Below, in pieces: positions 1,290-9,778 of a DNA stretch of 25,443 nucleotides. The number at the start of each line of letters is the position of its first letter. Within the stretch, counting starts at the first letter, position 1. The notes under the pieces were generated by a model that had not been told where the DNA came from, did no database searches, and saw nothing but the letters and a program-made list of their open reading frames with translations. Position numbers and translations under genes: made by a program. This DNA comes from a virus (taxonomy: Duplodnaviria > Caudoviricetes): the IMG/VR virus record IMGVR_UViG_3300030419_001308, positions 1 to 25,443 of that record; one strand, written 5' to 3'.

Positions 1290-1582
1290 AAAGGTAGTTC
1301 TCTTCTGTTATCTTTTGGAGTTGCTTTCTGTAATAAAGCATGACACTCCCTATACTCCCACATGTAAGGATTATCTTTGCTAGTTTTTTTATACTGTCTA
1401 CCACAATAAATGTTTCCTTCCTGGTCGCTGTAAGTTACATTAAATAGTTTCTTACACTCGTACTCTTGTTTACATTTGGTGTCAGGTTTAGGTGGTAAGG
1501 AGAAGTCATGAGAAGGGTATCGAACTCGCAACTTCTCCAATAGTTTATCTATCCCACCATTTCCTATAGGTTCTAAAGCCAC
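1286..1582 (-). CDS. Hypothetical Cys-containing protein (98 aa)
   Basis: Overlaps both neighbours in operon fashion; four Cys and a His; C-terminal ELPF resembles SSB-type tails. Confidence 0.7.
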   Translation of the reverse strand: MALEPIGNGGIDKLLEKLRVRYPSHDFSLPPKPDTKCKQEYECKKLFNVTYSDQEGNIYCGRQYKKTSKDNPYMWEYRECHALLQKATPKDNRRELPF

Positions 1583-2406
1583 TCTTTAGGTAATCCCTCA
1601 TTACCTATCCACCAACCTTTGCCGCAACCATTTTTATCTCCATAGTTACTACATGCAAAGTCAGGTATCTTACCAAACTTCTCAGGTTCATCTGCTTTCT
1701 TTTCTCTATTGTCTTCTATGTTTCCTGATGTGTTACATACAGGACATACCTTTAGAATCTCTGTATCAAACACAACAGAGATTTCATCAACAACTTCAAG
1801 TTCTTTTTCTACAACATCCATGAACATACCAACCTGTTCTAATGACCACTTCTCAATATCTACATCTAACTGGTCAGGAACTAACTCATTGTATATCTTA
1901 AGTTTTATCTTATCTCTTTGGTCCTGGTTAGGTATCATCTCTTTGAGCATGTGGTTTACCTGGTCAGCATTGCTTGTAGATTTTGGTTCAGCTACCATCT
2001 CATCAACTACTTTCTCCATAGCTGCTTGTTCTTCTTGAGTAGGTTTCTTTACTGGTTTCTTTTCTACTTGCACCTTAGACATTTCTTCTCTACTTGGTCT
2101 AGGTTTATTAGTGCCTTGATAGTTCCAGTTACTTAAAGCTCTACCTAAACTCGAGGTTTCCGCATTTTCCATCCACGCATCTGCATTTGCAAATCCACCT
2201 TGTCCTTTAGTTTCTTGTGCTATACCAGTGCTGACTGGTTTGACATCATTTATATCTTTATATATTTCAGACCTTATTGTTACGCATGTACCATCCTCTG
2301 TAATATGTATAACTTGTGTGTCTAATCTACCATTTGGAAAATCTTTCCAAAACTTTTTAAGTCTGTCTTCTACTGTTTCGTAATTATCTAAATTAAACTT
2401 AGCCAT
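1573..2406 (-). CDS. Probable ssDNA-annealing/recombination protein (Rad52/Sak/ERF-like N-domain) with C-terminal Zn ribbon
   Basis: YETVEDRL...GIAQE...ENAETSSLGRAL pattern is typical of phage annealing proteins; C-terminal CPVC...FACS...CGKGWW. Confidence 0.7.
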   Translation of the reverse strand: MAKFNLDNYETVEDRLKKFWKDFPNGRLDTQVIHITEDGTCVTIRSEIYKDINDVKPVSTGIAQETKGQGGFANADAWMENAETSSLGRALSNWNYQGTNKPRPSREEMSKVQVEKKPVKKPTQEEQAAMEKVVDEMVAEPKSTSNADQVNHMLKEMIPNQDQRDKIKLKIYNELVPDQLDVDIEKWSLEQVGMFMDVVEKELEVVDEISVVFDTEILKVCPVCNTSGNIEDNREKKADEPEKFGKIPDFACSNYGDKNGCGKGWWIGNEGLPKEWL

Positions 2407-2813
2407 TATTCCTCCTCTGCTTTACATAAGGTAGCACTTTTTCTTGGTTTGTAATTTACAAGGACTCCATATTTGTCATAATCTCTATCTTCATTATGGT
2501 TTCTTCTTTGTACTCTTACTTCTGCATTAGGATTGCAAAAATAAAACTCACTTTCCTTATGTGCTAATGCTATTGGTTTAGCTAATTCTAATTTGTCAGC
2601 ATAAATCACACCACCAAAAACATCATCATAAAATACATCATAGGCAAATTTACCATCATACATGTTATTTACAATGTAACCTGATGCACCATAATAAGGC
2701 GTTCTTATTGTATGCTCTTCCTCTGTGCCTACATTAAAAGTATCAATGATTATCATTGGTCTTTTCATATATATAGATTCGAGCTTTACTCGTTTGTTAT
2801 TTTTTACTTTCAT
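2406..2813 (-). CDS. Hypothetical phage protein (135 aa)
   Basis: SD AAGGGAG upstream; TAATG coupling to the next gene; preceded by motif copy 2. Confidence 0.8.
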   Translation of the reverse strand: MKVKNNKRVKLESIYMKRPMIIIDTFNVGTEEEHTIRTPYYGASGYIVNNMYDGKFAYDVFYDDVFGGVIYADKLELAKPIALAHKESEFYFCNPNAEVRVQRRNHNEDRDYDKYGVLVNYKPRKSATLCKAEEE

Positions 2814-2840
2814 TTGTTCTCCCTTTTTTATCTTTGTTAC

Positions 2841-2869
2841 TTAGACTACACATTGGTAATTAAGTTACA
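2841..2869 (-). promoter_or_regulatory. Early promoter motif copy 2: TGTAACT-N16-GTCTAA
   Basis: ttagact(2841-2847)...agttaca(2863-2869); the -35-like half contains the TAA stop of ORF 2865..3062. Confidence 0.65.
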
Positions 2870-3775: not shown

Positions 3776-4086
3776 TATTCCTCCTCCCTTATTTCTTGTA
3801 ATAAATCAGTAGCTGCATCAGGTCTCCCCAGTACATCTATCCAGGTATATAACAAATGTTTTATATCTAACAACTGATTGTATGAAAAGTCTTTGGACCT
3901 CTCAATACCATCTAAGAAATGAATTGCTATTGCAGTTACTCTTGGGTTATTGACCTCCCACATATTTGATTTTCTAGTATGTAGTTTGGTCTCATCAATC
4001 AGTATTTGATTAATGTTTGTCTTAGTTGTTCCAACCGCCAATAACATCCACCCCATCTCTTTCAGCTCTCTTAACGAAGGCATCAT
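3775..4086 (-). CDS. Hypothetical phage protein (~103 aa); start more likely ATG 4086 than TTG 4092
   Basis: AGGAG at 4100-4096 is 9 nt from ATG 4086; 65-nt overlap with the upstream ORF. Confidence 0.65.
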   Translation of the reverse strand: MMPSLRELKEMGWMLLAVGTTKTNINQILIDETKLHTRKSNMWEVNNPRVTAIAIHFLDGIERSKDFSYNQLLDIKHLLYTWIDVLGRPDAATDLLQEIREEE

Positions 4087-4375
4087 ATTCAAACTCTCCT
4101 ACTGAACATGCTTGATATAAGTCCTTTATTATATTCTTGTGTACTGCAGTAGTCATAGAATAAAACTCATTACATAAAATTACTTTAGTTTCATTTATGA
4201 ACGAACCATTTTCAACATCTACCACATAAGCGATTGGAGTATTGTAAGATATGATTCTATCGTATCTAGTTCCCTCTTCTCTTCTTAAGTTCCCTGTGCT
4301 TACTAGATTTGTTACCTTTGTAACTACATTTACTTCAGGCTTACTTAATCTAGGTTCTTTGTATATTGTTTTCAT
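4022..4375 (-). CDS. Conserved-looking phage early protein (117 aa)
   Basis: SYNTPIA...YSMTTAVH pattern recalled from small phage proteins (SYxTxIA...YSxTTxxH); SD AAAGGAG; preceded by motif copy 3. Confidence 0.8.
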   Translation of the reverse strand: MKTIYKEPRLSKPEVNVVTKVTNLVSTGNLRREEGTRYDRIISYNTPIAYVVDVENGSFINETKVILCNEFYSMTTAVHKNIIKDLYQACSVGEFEYDAFVKRAERDGVDVIGGWNN

Positions 4376-4393
4376 TTGTTCTCCTTTGTTTGT

Positions 4394-4423: not shown

Positions 4424-4795
4424 TTATTCTTCCTCTGCTTTTGTTTCATCTTGGAATAAAAACTCCCCAAATTCTAAAAAGTGTTTCATATCTTCCATGA
4501 TTTGCTGAACTGTCTCAAGTCTTTCAATAAGACTGATGGTAGCCTCAAAACCACCACTACTCCAGGAGACTTCCCAAGCTCCATCATTGTATCTATTTAC
4601 TCTTTTATCTCTGCGTAGTCTAAAGTTATCACTACCCCACCAACCTTTTGCAGTGTAGTGAACCGCAGTATAGAACTGCATATCCATATAGGTTCTCTCT
4701 ATATCTTGTAGCTCTATACATATATCATCTTTGTACTCTCTCTTTTCTGTCTTGAGATTGTCCACCTGATATATTTCGTTATATTCTTTTGTCAT
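4424..4795 (-). CDS. Hypothetical phage protein (123 aa)
   Basis: ATG start, SD GAAGGGT upstream. Confidence 0.8.
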   Translation of the reverse strand: MTKEYNEIYQVDNLKTEKREYKDDICIELQDIERTYMDMQFYTAVHYTAKGWWGSDNFRLRRDKRVNRYNDGAWEVSWSSGGFEATISLIERLETVQQIMEDMKHFLEFGEFLFQDETKAEEE

Positions 4796-5130: not shown

Positions 5131-5262
5131 TTACCCTTCTAATTCTCTTTGTAATTTTGCTTGTATATTCTGCAATTCTACAAATGTAGTACCATCTAAT
5201 AAATCAAGTTCTACATCCAAATCAATTACTTTTGTAATTGCCTCTAAGTATTCTTTCTCCAT
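5131..5262 (-). CDS. 43-aa acidic protein (MEKEYLEAITKVIDLDVELDLLDGTTFVELQNIQAKLQRELEG); not in ORF track
   Basis: SD AGAAAGGGT; preceded by motif copy 4; ends 2 nt before the next ATG. Confidence 0.75.
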   Translation of the reverse strand: MEKEYLEAITKVIDLDVELDLLDGTTFVELQNIQAKLQRELEG

Positions 5263-5282
5263 TGTTTACCCTTTCTTTATCT

Positions 5283-5312
5283 TTTGACTACCCTTTAACC
5301 AAAAAGGTTACA
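5283..5312 (-). promoter_or_regulatory. Early promoter motif copy 4: TGTAACC-N17-GTCAAA
   Basis: tttgact(5283-5289)...ggttaca(5306-5312); internal TAACC-N5-GGTTA. Confidence 0.7.
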
Positions 5313-5313
5313 G

Positions 5314-5556
5314 TTATTCTTCCCCATATTTTCTTACGATTAAGTCCATAATGTATCTATGCACTGTATCGATTGAACTTTCATGAACATCCTTAAAGTT
5401 GTTCATAAGTAACTCTTTAATCTCATCTTCTAAACTATCCTCTTCGAATAATTCTCCGCTTAGTGCTTGAGCTTTAAAGATTTCTTGAAGTCTTTGTTCT
5501 TTCTGCTCTTCTGTCATCTTTTCTAGTTCTCCATCTTTTAATGGTTCTATATTCAT
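5314..5556 (-). CDS. Acidic helical hypothetical protein (80 aa)
   Basis: SD AAGGAG; Glu/Asp rich; preceded by motif copy 5. Confidence 0.8.
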   Translation of the reverse strand: MNIEPLKDGELEKMTEEQKEQRLQEIFKAQALSGELFEEDSLEDEIKELLMNNFKDVHESSIDTVHRYIMDLIVRKYGEE

Positions 5557-5577
5557 TGTCTCTCCTTTTTCATATCT

Positions 5578-5607
5578 TTTGACTACCCTGCAACCGAAAT
5601 GGTTACA
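5578..5607 (-). promoter_or_regulatory. Early promoter motif copy 5: TGTAACC-N17-GTCAAA, overlapped by a 12-bp inverted repeat (5584-5612)
   Basis: tttgact(5578-5584)...ggttaca(5601-5607). Confidence 0.7.
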
Positions 5608-5625
5608 GGGTAATTTCTTTTCTTT

Positions 5626-5778
5626 TTATATGTTTAGGTCAAATTTATCTAAGTTACCTTTTACCCAAACTAAGTCGAATACTAGACTTTGTTTTTCCTT
5701 CTTGTTTAAGACCTCTGTATCTTGTACTGCTAATTTAAGTACAGTGTCTATTGCTTTCCTGATTTCTTGCTCTGTCAT
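5626..5778 (-). CDS. 50-aa hypothetical protein (MTEQEIRKAIDTVLKLAVQ...KFDLNI), first early gene; not in ORF track
   Basis: SD AGAAAGGGT; preceded by motif copy 6. Confidence 0.75.
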   Translation of the reverse strand: MTEQEIRKAIDTVLKLAVQDTEVLNKKEKQSLVFDLVWVKGNLDKFDLNI

Positions 5779-5803
5779 ATTTACCCTTTCTTGTTTGTAC
5801 AAC

Positions 5804-5833
5804 TTAGACTAAATAGGTTACAAAAAGGTTACA
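5804..5833 (-). promoter_or_regulatory. Early promoter motif copy 6: TGTAACC-N17-GTCTAA, with a second TGTAACC 11 bp downstream
   Basis: ttagact(5804-5810), ggttaca at 5816-5822 and 5827-5833; A-tract upstream. Confidence 0.7.
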
Positions 5834-5979
5834 GGATTTATATATTTTTTTTGTGGAGATACCTCAATTAAATTAACACCCATCCCCTGTGTTAGAAAAG
5901 TTTAAAACAGGTACAGGGGTGGTTATATGTTTGCAGTATGTTGGCAGTATTTACCAATATATATGCAGATATTTGCACA

Positions 5980-6130
5980 ACACAATATGTTGTATATATT
6001 ACAATAACACTAGATATAGGGGGGTTTAATGTGCGGTGCTGTGTAGTGTAGTGTGTAGTATTTAGAGAATATCTGTTAAGTTTGACCCACTATATGTAGT
6101 GTAATCTAAAGGGTACTCTATATATAGGTA
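5980..6130. promoter_or_regulatory. Four 16-bp NrdR-box-like palindromes in two pairs (starts 5980, 6007, 6087, 6115)
   Basis: ACACAATATGTTGTAT, ACACTAGATATAGGGG, CCACTATATGTAGTGT, ACTCTATATATAGGTA versus the NrdR consensus acaCwAtATaTwGtgt. Confidence 0.55.
6041..6060 (+). repeat. Short GTGTA tandem repeat (GTGTAGTGTAGTGTGTAGTA)
   Basis: Read directly; lies between the palindrome pairs, after a G6 run at 6019-6024. Confidence 0.7.
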
Positions 6131-6329
6131 CTTTACTTGAATTGTATCTAATTGAATACAGCTAACCCTGTGTCAACCCTCCCAACCAATGACTAAGTTT
6201 ATGACCACCTAATTTAAATATTTGAGCAAAGCAGCTATAACCTGCGAATATGGTCTTGCTAATCCACTTTGTTTAGAGTTTTATCTTAAGATTCTTTCTA
6301 AAAGCAAGAGAATCAAAATGTTTACTTAG

Positions 6330-6361
6330 AGCCTAGCAGGTATTTCTATTTATGGTAGGAT
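6330..6361. promoter_or_regulatory. Overlapping divergent extended -10 promoters (plus: CTAGCA-N17-TAGGAT with TG; minus: CTACCA-N17-TAGGCT with TG)
   Basis: TGnTAnnnT on both strands; the plus-strand start would fall at the G-run (~6367) that opens a hairpin. Confidence 0.45.
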
Positions 6362-6365
6362 TTTA

Positions 6366-6430
6366 TGGGGGATGTTTTTGTAGTTGTTCTCCCTTTTACT
6401 ACACCCTGTCTTTACATCCCCCAAGTTTTT
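6366..6430 (+). ncRNA. Candidate small RNA 1: hairpin with anti-Shine-Dalgarno loop UGUUCUCCCUUUU
   Basis: 10-bp stem 6366-6375/6414-6423, inner 6-bp stem 6379-6384/6398-6403, 13-nt loop, U-tract after; upstream extended -10. Confidence 0.5.
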
Positions 6431-6463
6431 AAAAAAATTTTTTTACACATATTCAACAAGTGT

Positions 6464-6472
6464 TGTTATAAT
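6464..6472 (+). promoter_or_regulatory. Extended -10 promoter TGTTATAAT
   Basis: Perfect TGnTATAAT; TTTACA at 6442-6447 (19-nt spacer); no plus-strand ORF directly downstream. Confidence 0.6.
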
Positions 6473-6478
6473 AAATAT

Positions 6479-6579
6479 TGGGATACAAAAAGTTTCGTAA
6501 TTTTTTGTTCATACCCCTTTCTTTGTTTAGATTGATGACAAGACCCTTGGACCAGGCAACTGACCGAGGGTTTTGTTAT
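6479..6579 (+). ncRNA. Candidate small RNA 2: 5' hairpin, pyrimidine linker (ACCCCUUUCUUUGUUU), 3' long stem capped by a GCAA tetraloop (terminator-like)
   Basis: 16-bp stem 6535-6550/6564-6579 with G-U pairs that only form on the plus strand; CAG-GCAA-CUG apical hairpin. Confidence 0.5.
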
Positions 6580-6592
6580 AATGTGGTATAGT
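6574..6592 (+). promoter_or_regulatory. Tandem extended -10 elements (TGTTATAAT, TGGTATAGT), candidate promoter of the late operon
   Basis: Directly upstream of SD AAGGAG (6603-6608) and ATG 6615. Confidence 0.55.
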
Positions 6593-6614
6593 AAAAATAA
6601 AAAAGGAGTATATT

Positions 6615-6668
6615 ATGCCATATCATAAAGCAAAAAAAGGTATGAAAAAAAAGAAGAAGAGGATGTAA
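6615..6668 (+). CDS. 17-aa very basic peptide MPYHKAKKGMKKKKKRM; not in ORF track
   Basis: SD AAGGAG with correct spacing; TAATG coupling to the next ORF. Confidence 0.65.
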   Translation: MPYHKAKKGMKKKKKRM

Positions 6669-6790
6669 TGCCTTTCAAAGATTACAGTCCAAAACAAAAA
6701 AAACTTGCACGAGTTGCACCACCCTTCGATAAAATTACTGCCGCAGATTTTAAAAAACTCAGAGACAGTAAACGAAGACCAAAGATGTAA
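6668..6790 (+). CDS. 40-aa basic protein (MPFKDYSPKQKKLARVAPPFDKITAADFKKLRDSKRRPKM); not in ORF track
   Basis: Translated by hand; coupled start; SPKQKKLA...KITxxDF pattern recalled from marine phage small proteins. Confidence 0.75.
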   Translation: MPFKDYSPKQKKLARVAPPFDKITAADFKKLRDSKRRPKM

Positions 6791-6792
6791 TT

Positions 6793-7050
6793 ATGGCAAC
6801 ATACCAAGGTAAATCAGTTACATTAAATAAACCATCCAGGATAAGCAAAGGCGAACCAGGACATGGTAGAAAAAAATTTAAAGTTTATGTAAACGATAAT
6901 GGTAAGATAAAAAAGATTATGTTTGGAGACCCAAACATGGAGATACGCAAAGACAACCCTGCAGCTAGAAAATCATTTAGAGCTAGACACAGATGTGATA
7001 CTGCTAAAGATAAGACAACTGCAAGGTATTGGTCTTGCAAGATGTGGTGA
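6793..7050 (+). CDS. Conserved basic phage protein (85 aa), DUF6321/DUF5754-like (tentative)
   Basis: FGDPNM...RKSFRARHRC...ARYWSCKMW pattern recalled from aquatic phages. Confidence 0.85.
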   Translation: MATYQGKSVTLNKPSRISKGEPGHGRKKFKVYVNDNGKIKKIMFGDPNMEIRKDNPAARKSFRARHRCDTAKDKTTARYWSCKMW

Positions 7051-7051
7051 T

Positions 7052-7225
7052 ATGAAAGTAAAAGGTGTAGATGTATCTAAGTTGACCAAGAGTCAACAGA
7101 ATGCTATGAAGAAACATTCTAAGCATCATACAAAAAAACACATGCAGTACATGTACAACTCTATGCGTAGAGGTACTAGCTTTAACAAAGCACATGTCAA
7201 CGCACAAAAGAAAGTAGGTAAATAA
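7052..7225 (+). CDS. 57-aa basic His-rich protein (MKVKGVDVSKL...KKHSKHHTKKHM...AHVNAQKKVGK)
   Basis: True start likely ATG 7052, right after the upstream TGA, rather than 6923. Confidence 0.8.
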   Translation: MKVKGVDVSKLTKSQQNAMKKHSKHHTKKHMQYMYNSMRRGTSFNKAHVNAQKKVGK

Positions 7226-7464
7226 TGGCAATACCTGAAAAAGCAAAAAAAACATTGCGAGAAAAAGCAGCTAAGTCAAAATATACTTATGGACAATTAG
7301 CACAAGTATATCGTAGAGGACAAGGTGCTTATGTATCATCAGGTTCAAGAGGCACATCCATGGCAGCATGGTCTATGGGAAGAGTAAATTCTTTTATTAG
7401 AGGTGGACACTCACAAGACAACGATATAAAGCGTGGTGTCAAAAAAACTAAAAAGAAGATGTAA
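7225..7464 (+). CDS. Basic viral protein (79 aa), DUF5824-like (tentative)
   Basis: LxxVYRRGxGAY...W..GRVNSF motif; TAATG coupling on both sides. Confidence 0.85.
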   Translation: MAIPEKAKKTLREKAAKSKYTYGQLAQVYRRGQGAYVSSGSRGTSMAAWSMGRVNSFIRGGHSQDNDIKRGVKKTKKKM

Positions 7465-7583
7465 TGGCACAGGTTAGTTGGATGTGGGGTGGCAAAAGAC
7501 ACTATGGTACTTTGATTCGAGAAACTAAAACACACAAGTTTGCTCGAACAAAAAATGGTAAAATCAAAAAGATTAAAAAATGA
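7464..7583 (+). CDS. 39-aa basic protein (MAQVSWMWGGKRHYGTLIRETKTHKFARTKNGKIKKIKK); not in ORF track
   Basis: TAATG start overlap and ATGA stop overlap fill the gap exactly. Confidence 0.75.
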   Translation: MAQVSWMWGGKRHYGTLIRETKTHKFARTKNGKIKKIKK

Positions 7584-7774
7584 GTAAAAGAACACAACCT
7601 TATAGATATGGTGTACCTGCAAAATATTTAAGTGGGTTATCTGATTCTGCTGCAAAAAAAAGAGCTGCAGAAATTAAAAGAACAGCTAAGGCATATAGAG
7701 AAGGTAGAAAAGTAAATCTAAAAGCAATACAAAAATCAAGAGTGGAGGCAGGTCGAAAAAAGAAACGCACTTGA
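7580..7774 (+). CDS. 64-aa basic protein
   Basis: ATGA coupling; VPAKYLSGLS motif; K/R rich. Confidence 0.8.
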   Translation: MSKRTQPYRYGVPAKYLSGLSDSAAKKRAAEIKRTAKAYREGRKVNLKAIQKSRVEAGRKKKRT

Positions 7775-7866
7775 TAATTAGTTGTCCAAGGTGCGAAGAA
7801 CCTTTATTGCCAAGTGATGACATGAAATGTCAAAACAAAAAATGTAAAAACTATGCAAGAAAATAA
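7771..7866 (+). CDS. 31-aa Zn-ribbon peptide (TTG start; MIISCPRCEEPLLPSDDMKCQNKKCKNYARK); not in ORF track
   Basis: TTGA overlap with the upstream stop; CxxC...CxxxxC. Confidence 0.55.
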   Translation: MIISCPRCEEPLLPSDDMKCQNKKCKNYARK

Positions 7867-9778
7867 AAAAATATGTTATGCAGCAGGATGTCATAGACCT
7901 TTACCAAAAGGCAAAAGAAAATATTGTTCTGATAAATGTTCTAACAGAATCAACATGCAAAAGAAAAGAGCCAGGAAGGCAGGAGTCGAATGGTCTCAAG
8001 AAGAAGATACACTAAACATACCTAGTCAAAAAACTAATGTAGCAAGTCGTAGAGGGCAAGTTTACGAAGACATAAAAGAATCAGGACTAGCTTTAGATTT
8101 ATACGAAAAGAAAATAAATCTAACAGAGGTAGCAAAAATTTTAAACACAACTGCTGCTGCAGTATCTATGGCATACCAGGCATACCTAGAGGATTTAAGA
8201 CAAGAAGAAGAACAAAAAAACTGGAGTTTACCAAAAGTTGCCAAAACTTCTTTACAAGATTTTGGAAAGTTTAGAGCAAGATATTTTAGAACAGAGCAAG
8301 GCAAAAAATTTGAGACACCTGAGTTTCATCAAAAATGGATTGAATCAATAATGAATACTATTGATGAAGGTGAACAACAAATGATTCTATCTCCACCTAG
8401 ACATGGTAAGACAGAACTATTGATACATTTTGTAGTGTGGTTGATATGCAACAATCCAAACATAAGAATTATGTGGGTTGGTGGAAATGAAGACATTGCA
8501 AAAAACTCTTTACTATCAGTTATGGACCAGTTAGAAAACAACGAGTTACTAATAGAAGAGATATGCGGACCAGGAGCAAAATTTAAACCTAAAACAAAAT
8601 CAAGTAAGTCTTGGTCTCAAAATGGTTTTACAGTTGGTACGAGGACAGTTACTGGAATTAAAAGTCCGACAATGGTAGGCATTGGTAGAGGAGGAAAGAT
8701 ATTGTCAAGAGATTGTGATTTGATTATTGCAGATGACATTGAAGACCACACTTCTACCATGCAACCATCCTCAAGAGAAAACACAAGAAACTGGTGGACT
8801 ACAACATTGTCAAGTCGTAAAGAGGAACATACTGCAATGGTAGTTATAGGTTCAAGACAACATTATGATGACTTGTATTCTCATTTATTAGAAAACGAAT
8901 CTTGGAAAACAATAGTAGAAGAGGCACATGATACAGGTTGCACAATAGCAGACTTTGAAGAACAAGAACATGTTGACTGTATGTTATGGGCTAGTAAGAG
9001 AAGTTTTAAATGGTTGATGGATAGAAAACGAGCAGCAGAAACTACAGGTGGTAGAGCAATTTATGAAATGGTTTATCTTAATATTGCAATGCCTGAAGGT
9101 CTTGCATTGTTTGACAGAGTAGAGATAGAAACATGTCGAGAACAAAAAAGAGACATTGGTCATATACCTCCAGGCACAAGATTGATTGCAGGACTAGACC
9201 CTGCATCTACAGGTTATCAAGCAGCTTTTCTTTGGGCATACGACAATGTACAGAATAAATTATATATGGTCGATATGAACAACAGTCTTGGTGGTGGTAT
9301 ACCACAGGCTTTAGAAATAATAAAAGGATGGTGGAAACAATATAATTGTTCACACTGGGTTATCGAAGAAAATGGTTTTCAGAAAGCTATAAGACAAGAT
9401 AAAAGTATTAGAGAGTTTGCAAGTGTGCATGGTGTACATCTTGAAGGACATGAAACAAATAAAAATAAATTTGACCCTTTGTATGGTGTTACTGCAATGA
9501 GACCACTATTCCAGGAAGAAAAAATTTCTTTGCCATATCTTAGCTATGAGGCTCAAGAAAAGGTAAACTTATATACAAGTCAGTTGGTTTATTTCAGCTC
9601 TGCTAAAAATAAAAGCAAGAGTGTGGGTACAAAGACTGACATTGTTATGGCTAGTTGGTTTCCAATGAGAGCAATTAGGCGTATGCAGAAAGAAAGATTT
9701 GCAGAGCTTGGTTATGAATATGAACCTAGCTTTACTGGGTACGAACCTAGTAATATGGATGTAGACACATGGAGATAA
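7853..9778 (+). CDS. terL: Terminase large subunit with N-terminal Zn-finger + HTH extension
   Basis: Walker A PPRHGKT, Walker B LIIADD, coupling motif VIGSR, RNase H-like nuclease AGLDPA...IEEN...DIVMA. Confidence 0.93.
   Translation: MQENKKICYAAGCHRPLPKGKRKYCSDKCSNRINMQKKRARKAGVEWSQEEDTLNIPSQKTNVASRRGQVYEDIKESGLALDLYEKKINLTEVAKILNTTAAAVSMAYQAYLEDLRQEEEQKNWSLPKVAKTSLQDFGKFRARYFRTEQGKKFETPEFHQKWIESIMNTIDEGEQQMILSPPRHGKTELLIHFVVWLICNNPNIRIMWVGGNEDIAKNSLLSVMDQLENNELLIEEICGPGAKFKPKTKSSKSWSQNGFTVGTRTVTGIKSPTMVGIGRGGKILSRDCDLIIADDIEDHTSTMQPSSRENTRNWWTTTLSSRKEEHTAMVVIGSRQHYDDLYSHLLENESWKTIVEEAHDTGCTIADFEEQEHVDCMLWASKRSFKWLMDRKRAAETTGGRAIYEMVYLNIAMPEGLALFDRVEIETCREQKRDIGHIPPGTRLIAGLDPASTGYQAAFLWAYDNVQNKLYMVDMNNSLGGGIPQALEIIKGWWKQYNCSHWVIEENGFQKAIRQDKSIREFASVHGVHLEGHETNKNKFDPLYGVTAMRPLFQEEKISLPYLSYEAQEKVNLYTSQLVYFSSAKNKSKSVGTKTDIVMASWFPMRAIRRMQKERFAELGYEYEPSFTGYEPSNMDVDTWR

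Follow-up and report, generated by a model that had tools for sequence, protein, structure and literature searches.

A conserved phage hairpin predicted to pair with the ribosome-binding sites of the phage's own early genes

Results

Genes and promoter-like motifs of the early region

The window, meaning the whole 25.4-kb virus record that was analysed, carries small leftward genes before position ~5800 and a terminase-led rightward arm after position 6600. Among the leftward genes, the ORF at 2406-2813 (minus strand, 135 aa), which is the first predicted target gene discussed below, had no match in Pfam or PHROG, its matches in the Atlas reached at most 0.80, and only three relatives were found for it among viral contigs. 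This ORF had been described in an earlier note, made from the window alone, as the head of a recombination operon: it does head a unit, in which the next gene (1573-2406, minus strand) likely encodes a Rad52/Mgm101-like annealing protein with a fold that is weakly supported, since the top Foldseek rows for its model (pLDDT 76) were Mgm101 and RAD52 with a best E value of 0.01 and none at or below 0.001.

The unit that starts with ORF 2406-2813 is headed by a promoter-like GTAAC-N16-AGTC motif (2842-2868, minus strand), which may be read by an alternative sigma factor. Further copies of this motif start at 517, 4421, 5311, 5606 and 5832/5821 on the minus strand. All six sites are thus on the early strand, and both the opposite strand and the late arm have none. 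The motif is shared with two related loci, L041 and L260; most relatives use housekeeping-like TTGACA/TATAAT early promoters. Searches for sigma region 4, for WhiB and for a tyrosine integrase each gave no hit in five complete relatives.

Between the two arms, a divergent conserved non-coding element is found at 6150-6315 (minus strand; ~70% blastn identity in many relatives), and it is probably a separate RNA. This element of ~170-190 nt had no Rfam match and is probably pseudoknotted, with the loop of its 5' hairpin pairing with a downstream AGCAGG and with compensatory changes that include the window (CCTGCT/AGCAGG versus CTTGCT/AGCAAG, by eye). It also occurs in relatives without the hairpin described in the next section. 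Several relative contigs start ~1 kb before an 85-aa gene, and positions 5800-6150 of the window, which contain G-rich and GT-rich tracts, may mark a genome end. A further conserved structured unit, which the window lacks, is located 100-350 nt before the first late genes in L014, L008, L071 and others; it is composed of a CCTAAG-GAAA-CTTAGG hairpin, then ACAGT..GGAC..CTGT and then a terminator-like hairpin.

A promoter-led nested hairpin that likely corresponds to a small RNA

The earlier note had reported a nested hairpin that follows a promoter-like sequence, and both features are real: a putative extended -10 promoter box of the TGnTAnnnT type (TGGTAGGAT, 6353-6361, plus strand) precedes a plus-strand hairpin whose folding energy of -20.8 kcal/mol (z -3.96) was equalled by none of 200 shuffles. 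This predicted small RNA, hereafter unit 1 (6367-6430, plus strand), is predicted to fold into an outer stem (6367-6375/6414-6422), an inner stem (6379-6384/6398-6403) and a 3' internal loop (6404-6413), and it ends with a U tract (6426-6430). The anti-RBS loop proper is at 6385-6397, T6384 being one of the bases of the stem; this loop is a derived variant of the family loop and it is predicted to open at a cost of only 0.16 kcal/mol. The minus strand folds almost equally well by itself (-20.0 kcal/mol).

Contigs from four RNA runs, which were selected using the window itself and of which small shares were taken, are unstranded: contigs of X2 span 6217-6367 and 6417-6568 and a contig of X3 spans 6066-6253, leaving the core of the hairpin uncovered. 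A 56-aa ORF at 6365-6535 was considered as a small protein and rejected, as it is frameshifted to 35-44 aa in four of six contigs of the window's clade. At the position of unit 1 in L427 (~765-810), there is a hairpin whose plus-strand loop shows a sense SD sequence (CAGAAAGGAGGC), and which may be a sponge or a copy in inverted orientation.

Stems covary around a nearly invariant loop

The unit 1 hairpin belongs to a family seen in ~80 distinct phage contexts (79 among the loci gathered up to a scan with the 17-nt loop, which was found in at least 120 viral stretches, with ~160 estimated). When 80 loci were fetched through a neighbouring gene, 28 of them, duplicates included, carried the hairpin. 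Of the 75 loci from a scan whose anchor was outside the loop, 58 had canonical loops, 7 had single-base variants, 6 had loops of the window type and 4 were without the hairpin. The proposal of a phage small RNA had been made dependent on conservation of the stem or the loop in relatives, and both are indeed conserved: the family loop is nearly invariant while the stems drift, with compensatory changes at 7 of 13 stem pairs in 30 aligned sequences. Changes on both sides of a pair were counted in 40 cells, whereas shuffles gave 11 and slid controls 1-8, relatedness inflating these counts. Unit 1 is a real conserved element.

Folding energy scarcely separates the two strands (the plus strand is better in 48 of 76 sequences), and it is the mismatch type alone that does so. 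On the plus strand, the non-Watson-Crick pairs of the outer stem in these 76 sequences are G-U in 53 cases, A-C in 3 and other in 15, and the element was assigned to this strand because G-U pairs far outnumber A-C pairs. Moreover, of 49 low-GC loci that had been chosen by the loop alone, 39 have an extended -10 box no more than 55 nt upstream, against a background of 7% of random 45-nt windows. From the covariation, the G-U bias and the extended -10 box upstream of the stem, we infer that unit 1 is likely a plus-strand RNA of roughly 60 nt, running from ~6367 to the U run at 6426-6430. Since its promoter is housekeeping-like, this RNA may already be produced when infection begins. In five loci of a more distant group, a terminator-like hairpin followed by a U run is seen by eye 3' of the loop on the same strand.

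Rfam gave nothing near its gathering score for positions 5200-8000 of the window, 10 related loci and 13 other loci, and a 33-nt piece of the hairpin was unmatched in an annotated phage collection, in which relatives of the terminase are only ~25% identical. A literature search gave no description of the exact loop or of the family, although the family may be among the candidates of two motif surveys (PMC5737381, PMC10690425).

The loop matches leaders of early genes in the window

As the earlier note had stated, positions 6384-6397 are identical over 14 nt to positions 2814-2827, which form the reverse-strand leader of ORF 2406-2813, and there is also a 9-nt match at 4376-4384 and an imperfect one at 5556-5570. 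To assess chance, the 14-mer was shuffled: it then reached 14 nt in 3 of 3,000 trials against the 17 leader windows of the left arm and, with a 6-nt core kept fixed, at least 13 nt were reached in 8 of 3,000 shuffles, both tests being post hoc. T6397 is private to the window, with a C in all six other contigs of its clade, and the conserved match is therefore of 13 nt. The 9-nt site is itself a 13-nt perfect match in all three other clade contigs holding it (L242, L243 and L244); the leaders of the homologues of ORF 2406-2813 and ORF 4022-4375 both carry the same 13-nt complement in three other contigs.

The best predicted target is the SD-to-start leader of ORF 2406-2813 (2814-2827, minus strand), with a predicted duplex of -19.5 kcal/mol (target opening 0.5) compared to -15.2 kcal/mol for the next partner of the loop on either strand of the window. 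Both the loop and this leader are predicted to be open, and three of three relatives have the same leader. The leader of ORF 4022-4375 (4376-4387, minus strand) is the second predicted target, at -12.6 kcal/mol in the window. Using hand-listed starts, early leaders of the window pair at -11.4 kcal/mol versus -4.9 kcal/mol for late leaders (12 and 14 starts, respectively; p 3e-5).

Opening the inner hairpin of unit 1 alone would cost 4.7 kcal/mol versus -20.4 kcal/mol for the duplex. Nested co-folding at 37 C, with a model that cannot form kissing loops, gave small gains: -3.4 for the best target, near 0 to -3 for most leaders and -6.5 for ORF 4424-4795. An extended duplex was predicted for two leaders. 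A second site of pairing, located in the 3' internal loop, was also considered and is not supported, as 18% of shuffles were as good.

The ancestral loop and the 16S tail of the likely host

A likely host was deduced via L007, a relative without the unit 1 hairpin, whose terminase is 79% identical and which carries a ferredoxin gene at 527-772 in its ncRNA region. In a 301-genome sample of one class, identities of 81-93% to this ferredoxin were confined, among the matches listed, to genomes of 0.6-1.1 Mb, larger genomes not exceeding 82%; its named matches include Actinomycetota/Acidimicrobiia labels (72-75%) and, at 84%, a single Pelagibacter MAG label. A genome size of 0.6-1.1 Mb and a GC content of 34% fit Ca. 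Actinomarinales as described in excerpts of a published account (PMC7771536). Through this relative, the host can be inferred to be a streamlined marine actinobacterium.

The 16S gene ends in GGATCACCTCCTTTCT in five of five candidate host genomes, and the canonical loop therefore shares CCTCCTTTC (9 nt) with the 16S tail. By its letters, the ancestral loop is a generic mimic of this tail, and canonical loops match the leaders of their own phages over just 9-10 nt, which the earlier note had missed.

Such an invariant loop suggests a fixed target, and host mRNAs with strong SD sites might then be the main targets, as part of a host takeover. Among 636 host leaders called in 740 kb of one ~1.1 Mb genome, 13 contain GGAGG and the mean pairing with the canonical loop is -5.1 kcal/mol; 41 of them pair at or below -10 kcal/mol, as a host takeover would need. 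The best host leader reached -14.6 kcal/mol (canonical loop) or -16.2 kcal/mol (variant loop), however, versus -19 kcal/mol for the phage's own leader. A fixed target was also searched for in host genomes and none was found: the exact 13-nt complement is absent from 65 candidate host genomes, and matches with one mismatch were no commoner than for a reversed control, being mostly away from gene starts in the 30 loci that were read. We therefore hold a host takeover to be highly improbable.

Predicted pairing shifted jointly in the loop and the early leaders of the window's clade

The derived loop variant is confined to one long-branch clade in a quick version of a terminase tree. To compare leaders, the early, late and host sets were all called with a single ad hoc rule, which was purine-weighted and took ATG starts, with minimum lengths that differed; the comparison excludes L114 and three unrelated loci of high GC. 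Across 30 canonical loci, the canonical loop pairs with early leaders at -10.4 kcal/mol and the variant loop at -8.3 kcal/mol, while the order is reversed in the variant clade (-9.7 and -10.7 kcal/mol, respectively). The loop type of the phage itself pairs better on average in all 30 canonical loci and in all four variant loci (two genotypes). AAGGG is found in only 12 of 397 early leaders of canonical loci versus 6 of 15 in the window and 8 of 15 in the L001 type (in which L001 and L243 represent a single contig and the numbers for L288 are identical). It is found in none of the late leaders (0/168 and 0/32), which pair near -5 kcal/mol. L041 and L260 share the GTAAC...AGTC early promoters yet keep the canonical loop, AAGGG being absent from the 10 leaders of L041 and present in 2 of the 15 leaders of L260, and the stems of L041 are by eye the most similar to those of the window's clade.

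Since the variant clade forms a single long branch amid canonical phages, the loop shift is a single event, and a second terminase scan revealed no further independent shift beyond single-base variants. That late leaders are unshifted and that the 16S tail is the same in five of five candidate hosts argues against an altered host ribosome as a common cause. Altogether, these comparisons of predicted pairing show that the loop and the early leaders shifted jointly in the window's clade.

The same loop recurs in unrelated phages, often with an A-G closing

The exact 17-mer recurs in unrelated phages, often within operons. The 44 matches to the loop in genomes are near chance level and 39 of them have no long stem; the other five have stems of 9-15 bp and are all in a phage-like context (four are annotated, and the sequence of L239 equals that of L227). 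In metagenomes, 118 of 119 matches have stems of at least 5 bp, two of them forced by the search pattern. When an inner A-G mismatch closes the loop, it is hairpin-borne in 63 of 65 viral contexts, most of which belong to one family, compared to 9 of 75 for all other closings, and Watson-Crick closings of the loop are not favoured. Being hairpin-borne so often, the A-G-closed form goes beyond what pairing alone needs, which points to a shaped module, possibly with a protein partner or a role in cis.

Separately, the same or nearly the same loop was observed in unrelated phages (L206, L604, L198, L227, L346, L349, L393, L304 and L321) after a gene with an ssb-like end, after capsid/scaffold genes, after tRNA-like 3' ends or just upstream of an RBS, at a distance of a few nt. 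In higher-GC contigs (L372, L386, L388 and L182), the hairpin is flanked by two other repeated conserved motifs, and this set suggests another RNA cluster.

One explanation that would fit a shaped module is that the RNA mimics the 16S 3' tail as a protein-binding decoy, whose partner might be a ribosomal factor, an initiation factor or a defence nuclease that cleaves the anti-SD, for instance, mRNA pairing being secondary. The identical 17-mer with its A-G mismatch in unrelated phages, the phage-like context of all five genome matches with stems of at least 9 bp, the lack of preference for Watson-Crick closings and the 9 nt in common with the host 16S tail all speak in favour of a decoy. However, in the window's clade the A-G motif has disappeared, as has the exact identity with the tail, while the promoter and the stems were kept; the loop of this clade moved toward its own leaders, and no partner gene was identified, which makes us regard a decoy as unlikely.

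A role in cis, as a terminator, a processing site or a DNA hairpin, or an origin as a copied leader relic, would leave the match as a mere product of a shared purine-rich style, and we find this very unlikely. It would account for the U run that follows the outer stem and for the placement of the motif in other phages, where it follows a gene or a tRNA-like end or immediately precedes an RBS, but not for a conserved promoter box that is directly upstream with no gene between, nor for a loop that is invariant while stems drift; the G-U bias also favours an RNA, and the overlapping 56-aa ORF is frameshifted in four of six clade contigs.

A second, adjacent anti-leader unit

While the case that the earlier note had made for unit 1 as a small RNA is borne out in part, it had overlooked an adjacent second anti-leader unit. 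This unit 2 (6479-6580, plus strand) is also a predicted small RNA and it is preceded by a sigma-70-type promoter-like site (6444-6472, plus strand; 10 of 12 consensus matches, with TG), similar boxes being visible by eye in relatives. It contains an anti-leader tract (6506-6530), which is complementary to an A/C-rich early leader up to and including the start codon, and a G-U-rich hairpin (6535-6579) with a z of -6.2 on the plus strand and -3.4 on the minus strand. The tract was found in all 32 loci examined and, among 13 tract types that are not strictly independent lineages, it favours the early leaders of its own phage (double-centred mean -1.06 kcal/mol; permutation p with a median of 0.001 and a maximum of 0.004). 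Of the 32 tracts, that of the window comes out best against the leaders of the window itself. Arguably, unit 2 is a stronger covariation case than unit 1. A minus-strand mini-gene at this position is unlikely because its start codon is absent in several relatives and immediately followed by a stop in others (by eye).

These results also bear on whether the pairing might be aimed mainly at the early mRNAs of co-infecting related phages, leading to superinfection exclusion. Unit 1 has a housekeeping-like promoter and is near the probable genome end, so that it may be made at once, and every relative tested has early leaders with which the canonical loop pairs. Nevertheless, the loop and unit 2 track the leaders of their own phage rather than avoiding them, and a tyrosine integrase was found in none of five complete relatives; we thus consider superinfection exclusion to be quite improbable.

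Discussion

The reading that we favour, with moderate confidence, is that the unit 1 RNA pairs in trans with the phage's own early SD leaders and thereby dampens the expression of early genes. The trans-acting multi-target sRNA imagined in the earlier note gains a structured plus-strand unit, an accessible loop and a preference for early leaders, as predicted from sequence. The unit would be transcribed from its own promoter as a ~60-nt RNA and its loop, mimicking the 16S 3' tail, would seed on the SD sequences of early leaders. The short inner stem would then open, at a cost of ~4.7 kcal/mol versus -20 kcal/mol for the duplex, and 30S loading would be blocked at these leaders, reducing early protein synthesis. 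Unit 2 would act jointly by covering further early leaders. Late genes and most host genes would be largely spared because they are without strong SD sites. Concerning timing, our preferred guess is that the RNA accumulates steadily, damping early translation as infection proceeds. One point against this reading is that a strong use of SD sequences by early genes and a weak one by late genes could arise without any sRNA. Others are the small gains in nested co-folding, the short matches of canonical loops to their own leaders, the single origin of the loop shift, the insufficiency of one loop-loop contact for RNAIII, the recurrence of the loop in unrelated phages and the deduction of the host via a relative lacking unit 1.

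More tentatively, and with chances that we place somewhat below even, these units may constitute an RNA-only early shut-off. Since the host barely uses SD sequences, the phage would give strong SD leaders only to its early genes, which would then be silenced by two adjacent co-evolving RNAs mimicking the 16S tail, with a module that is reused across several phyla. If true, this would explain the strong SD loading of early genes in a host that seldom uses SD sequences. In addition, the canonical and variant loops form, together with their leaders, a natural compensatory pair that can be tested by reporter or in vitro assays, for which host culture is unneeded.

Excerpts of a review on phage sRNAs (PMC12197685) mention no phage RNA that silences a class of the phage's own genes by copying the 16S tail. 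According to the same excerpts, c4 of P1/P7 and sar of P22 are small RNAs that block the translation of phage mRNAs, c4 binding around the RBS through loop-placed sequences, but these have one antirepressor target in temperate phages, whereas unit 1 is predicted to have many early leaders as targets and mimics the 16S tail. Nor does the window look like a member of the c4/sar group, its best target gene being without known family and tyrosine integrase being absent from the five complete relatives.

A different parallel is offered by the start-associated sequences (SAS) of cluster K mycobacteriophages, as described in parts of PMC3203893: a 13-bp repeat with 11-19 copies before non-structural genes, resembling an extended RBS that is rare in the host, with one reversed copy in some genomes and a possible RNA partner left open. 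This lone reversed copy recalls the loop of unit 1. However, those parts describe no RNA, while the reverse copy in unit 1 is part of a covarying, promoter-led hairpin, and the exact 13-mer precedes two genes only, the remaining leaders being looser in style.

Among bacterial regulators, RsaE and RNAIII are similar in that an unpaired C-rich motif pairs with the SD sequence and blocks initiation (excerpts of PMC3053349), and the loop of the window has UCCC. Unlike unit 1, they are host regulators, with which it has no sequence or structure homology and no Rfam match. One loop-loop contact is insufficient for repression by RNAIII (same excerpts), and a counterpart of its second contact is not supported in unit 1. 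NfeR1, one of the cuckoo/ar14 sRNAs of Alphaproteobacteria, silences many mRNAs through anti-SD motifs (excerpts of PMC4615179), and cuckoo RNAs are bacterial, with two to four adjacent hairpins that each have the loop CCUCCUCCC (parts of bioRxiv 10.1101/2025.11.14.688489). Like these, unit 1 has an invariant anti-SD loop on freely covarying stems, but it consists of one nested hairpin with another loop, it is phage-encoded and its predicted targets are in its own genome; the cuckoo/ar14 Rfam model was unmatched by positions 5200-8000 of the window, by the 10 related loci and by the 13 other loci. By analogy, unit 1 thus resembles cuckoo/NfeR1 and RsaE in its predicted action, while belonging to neither.
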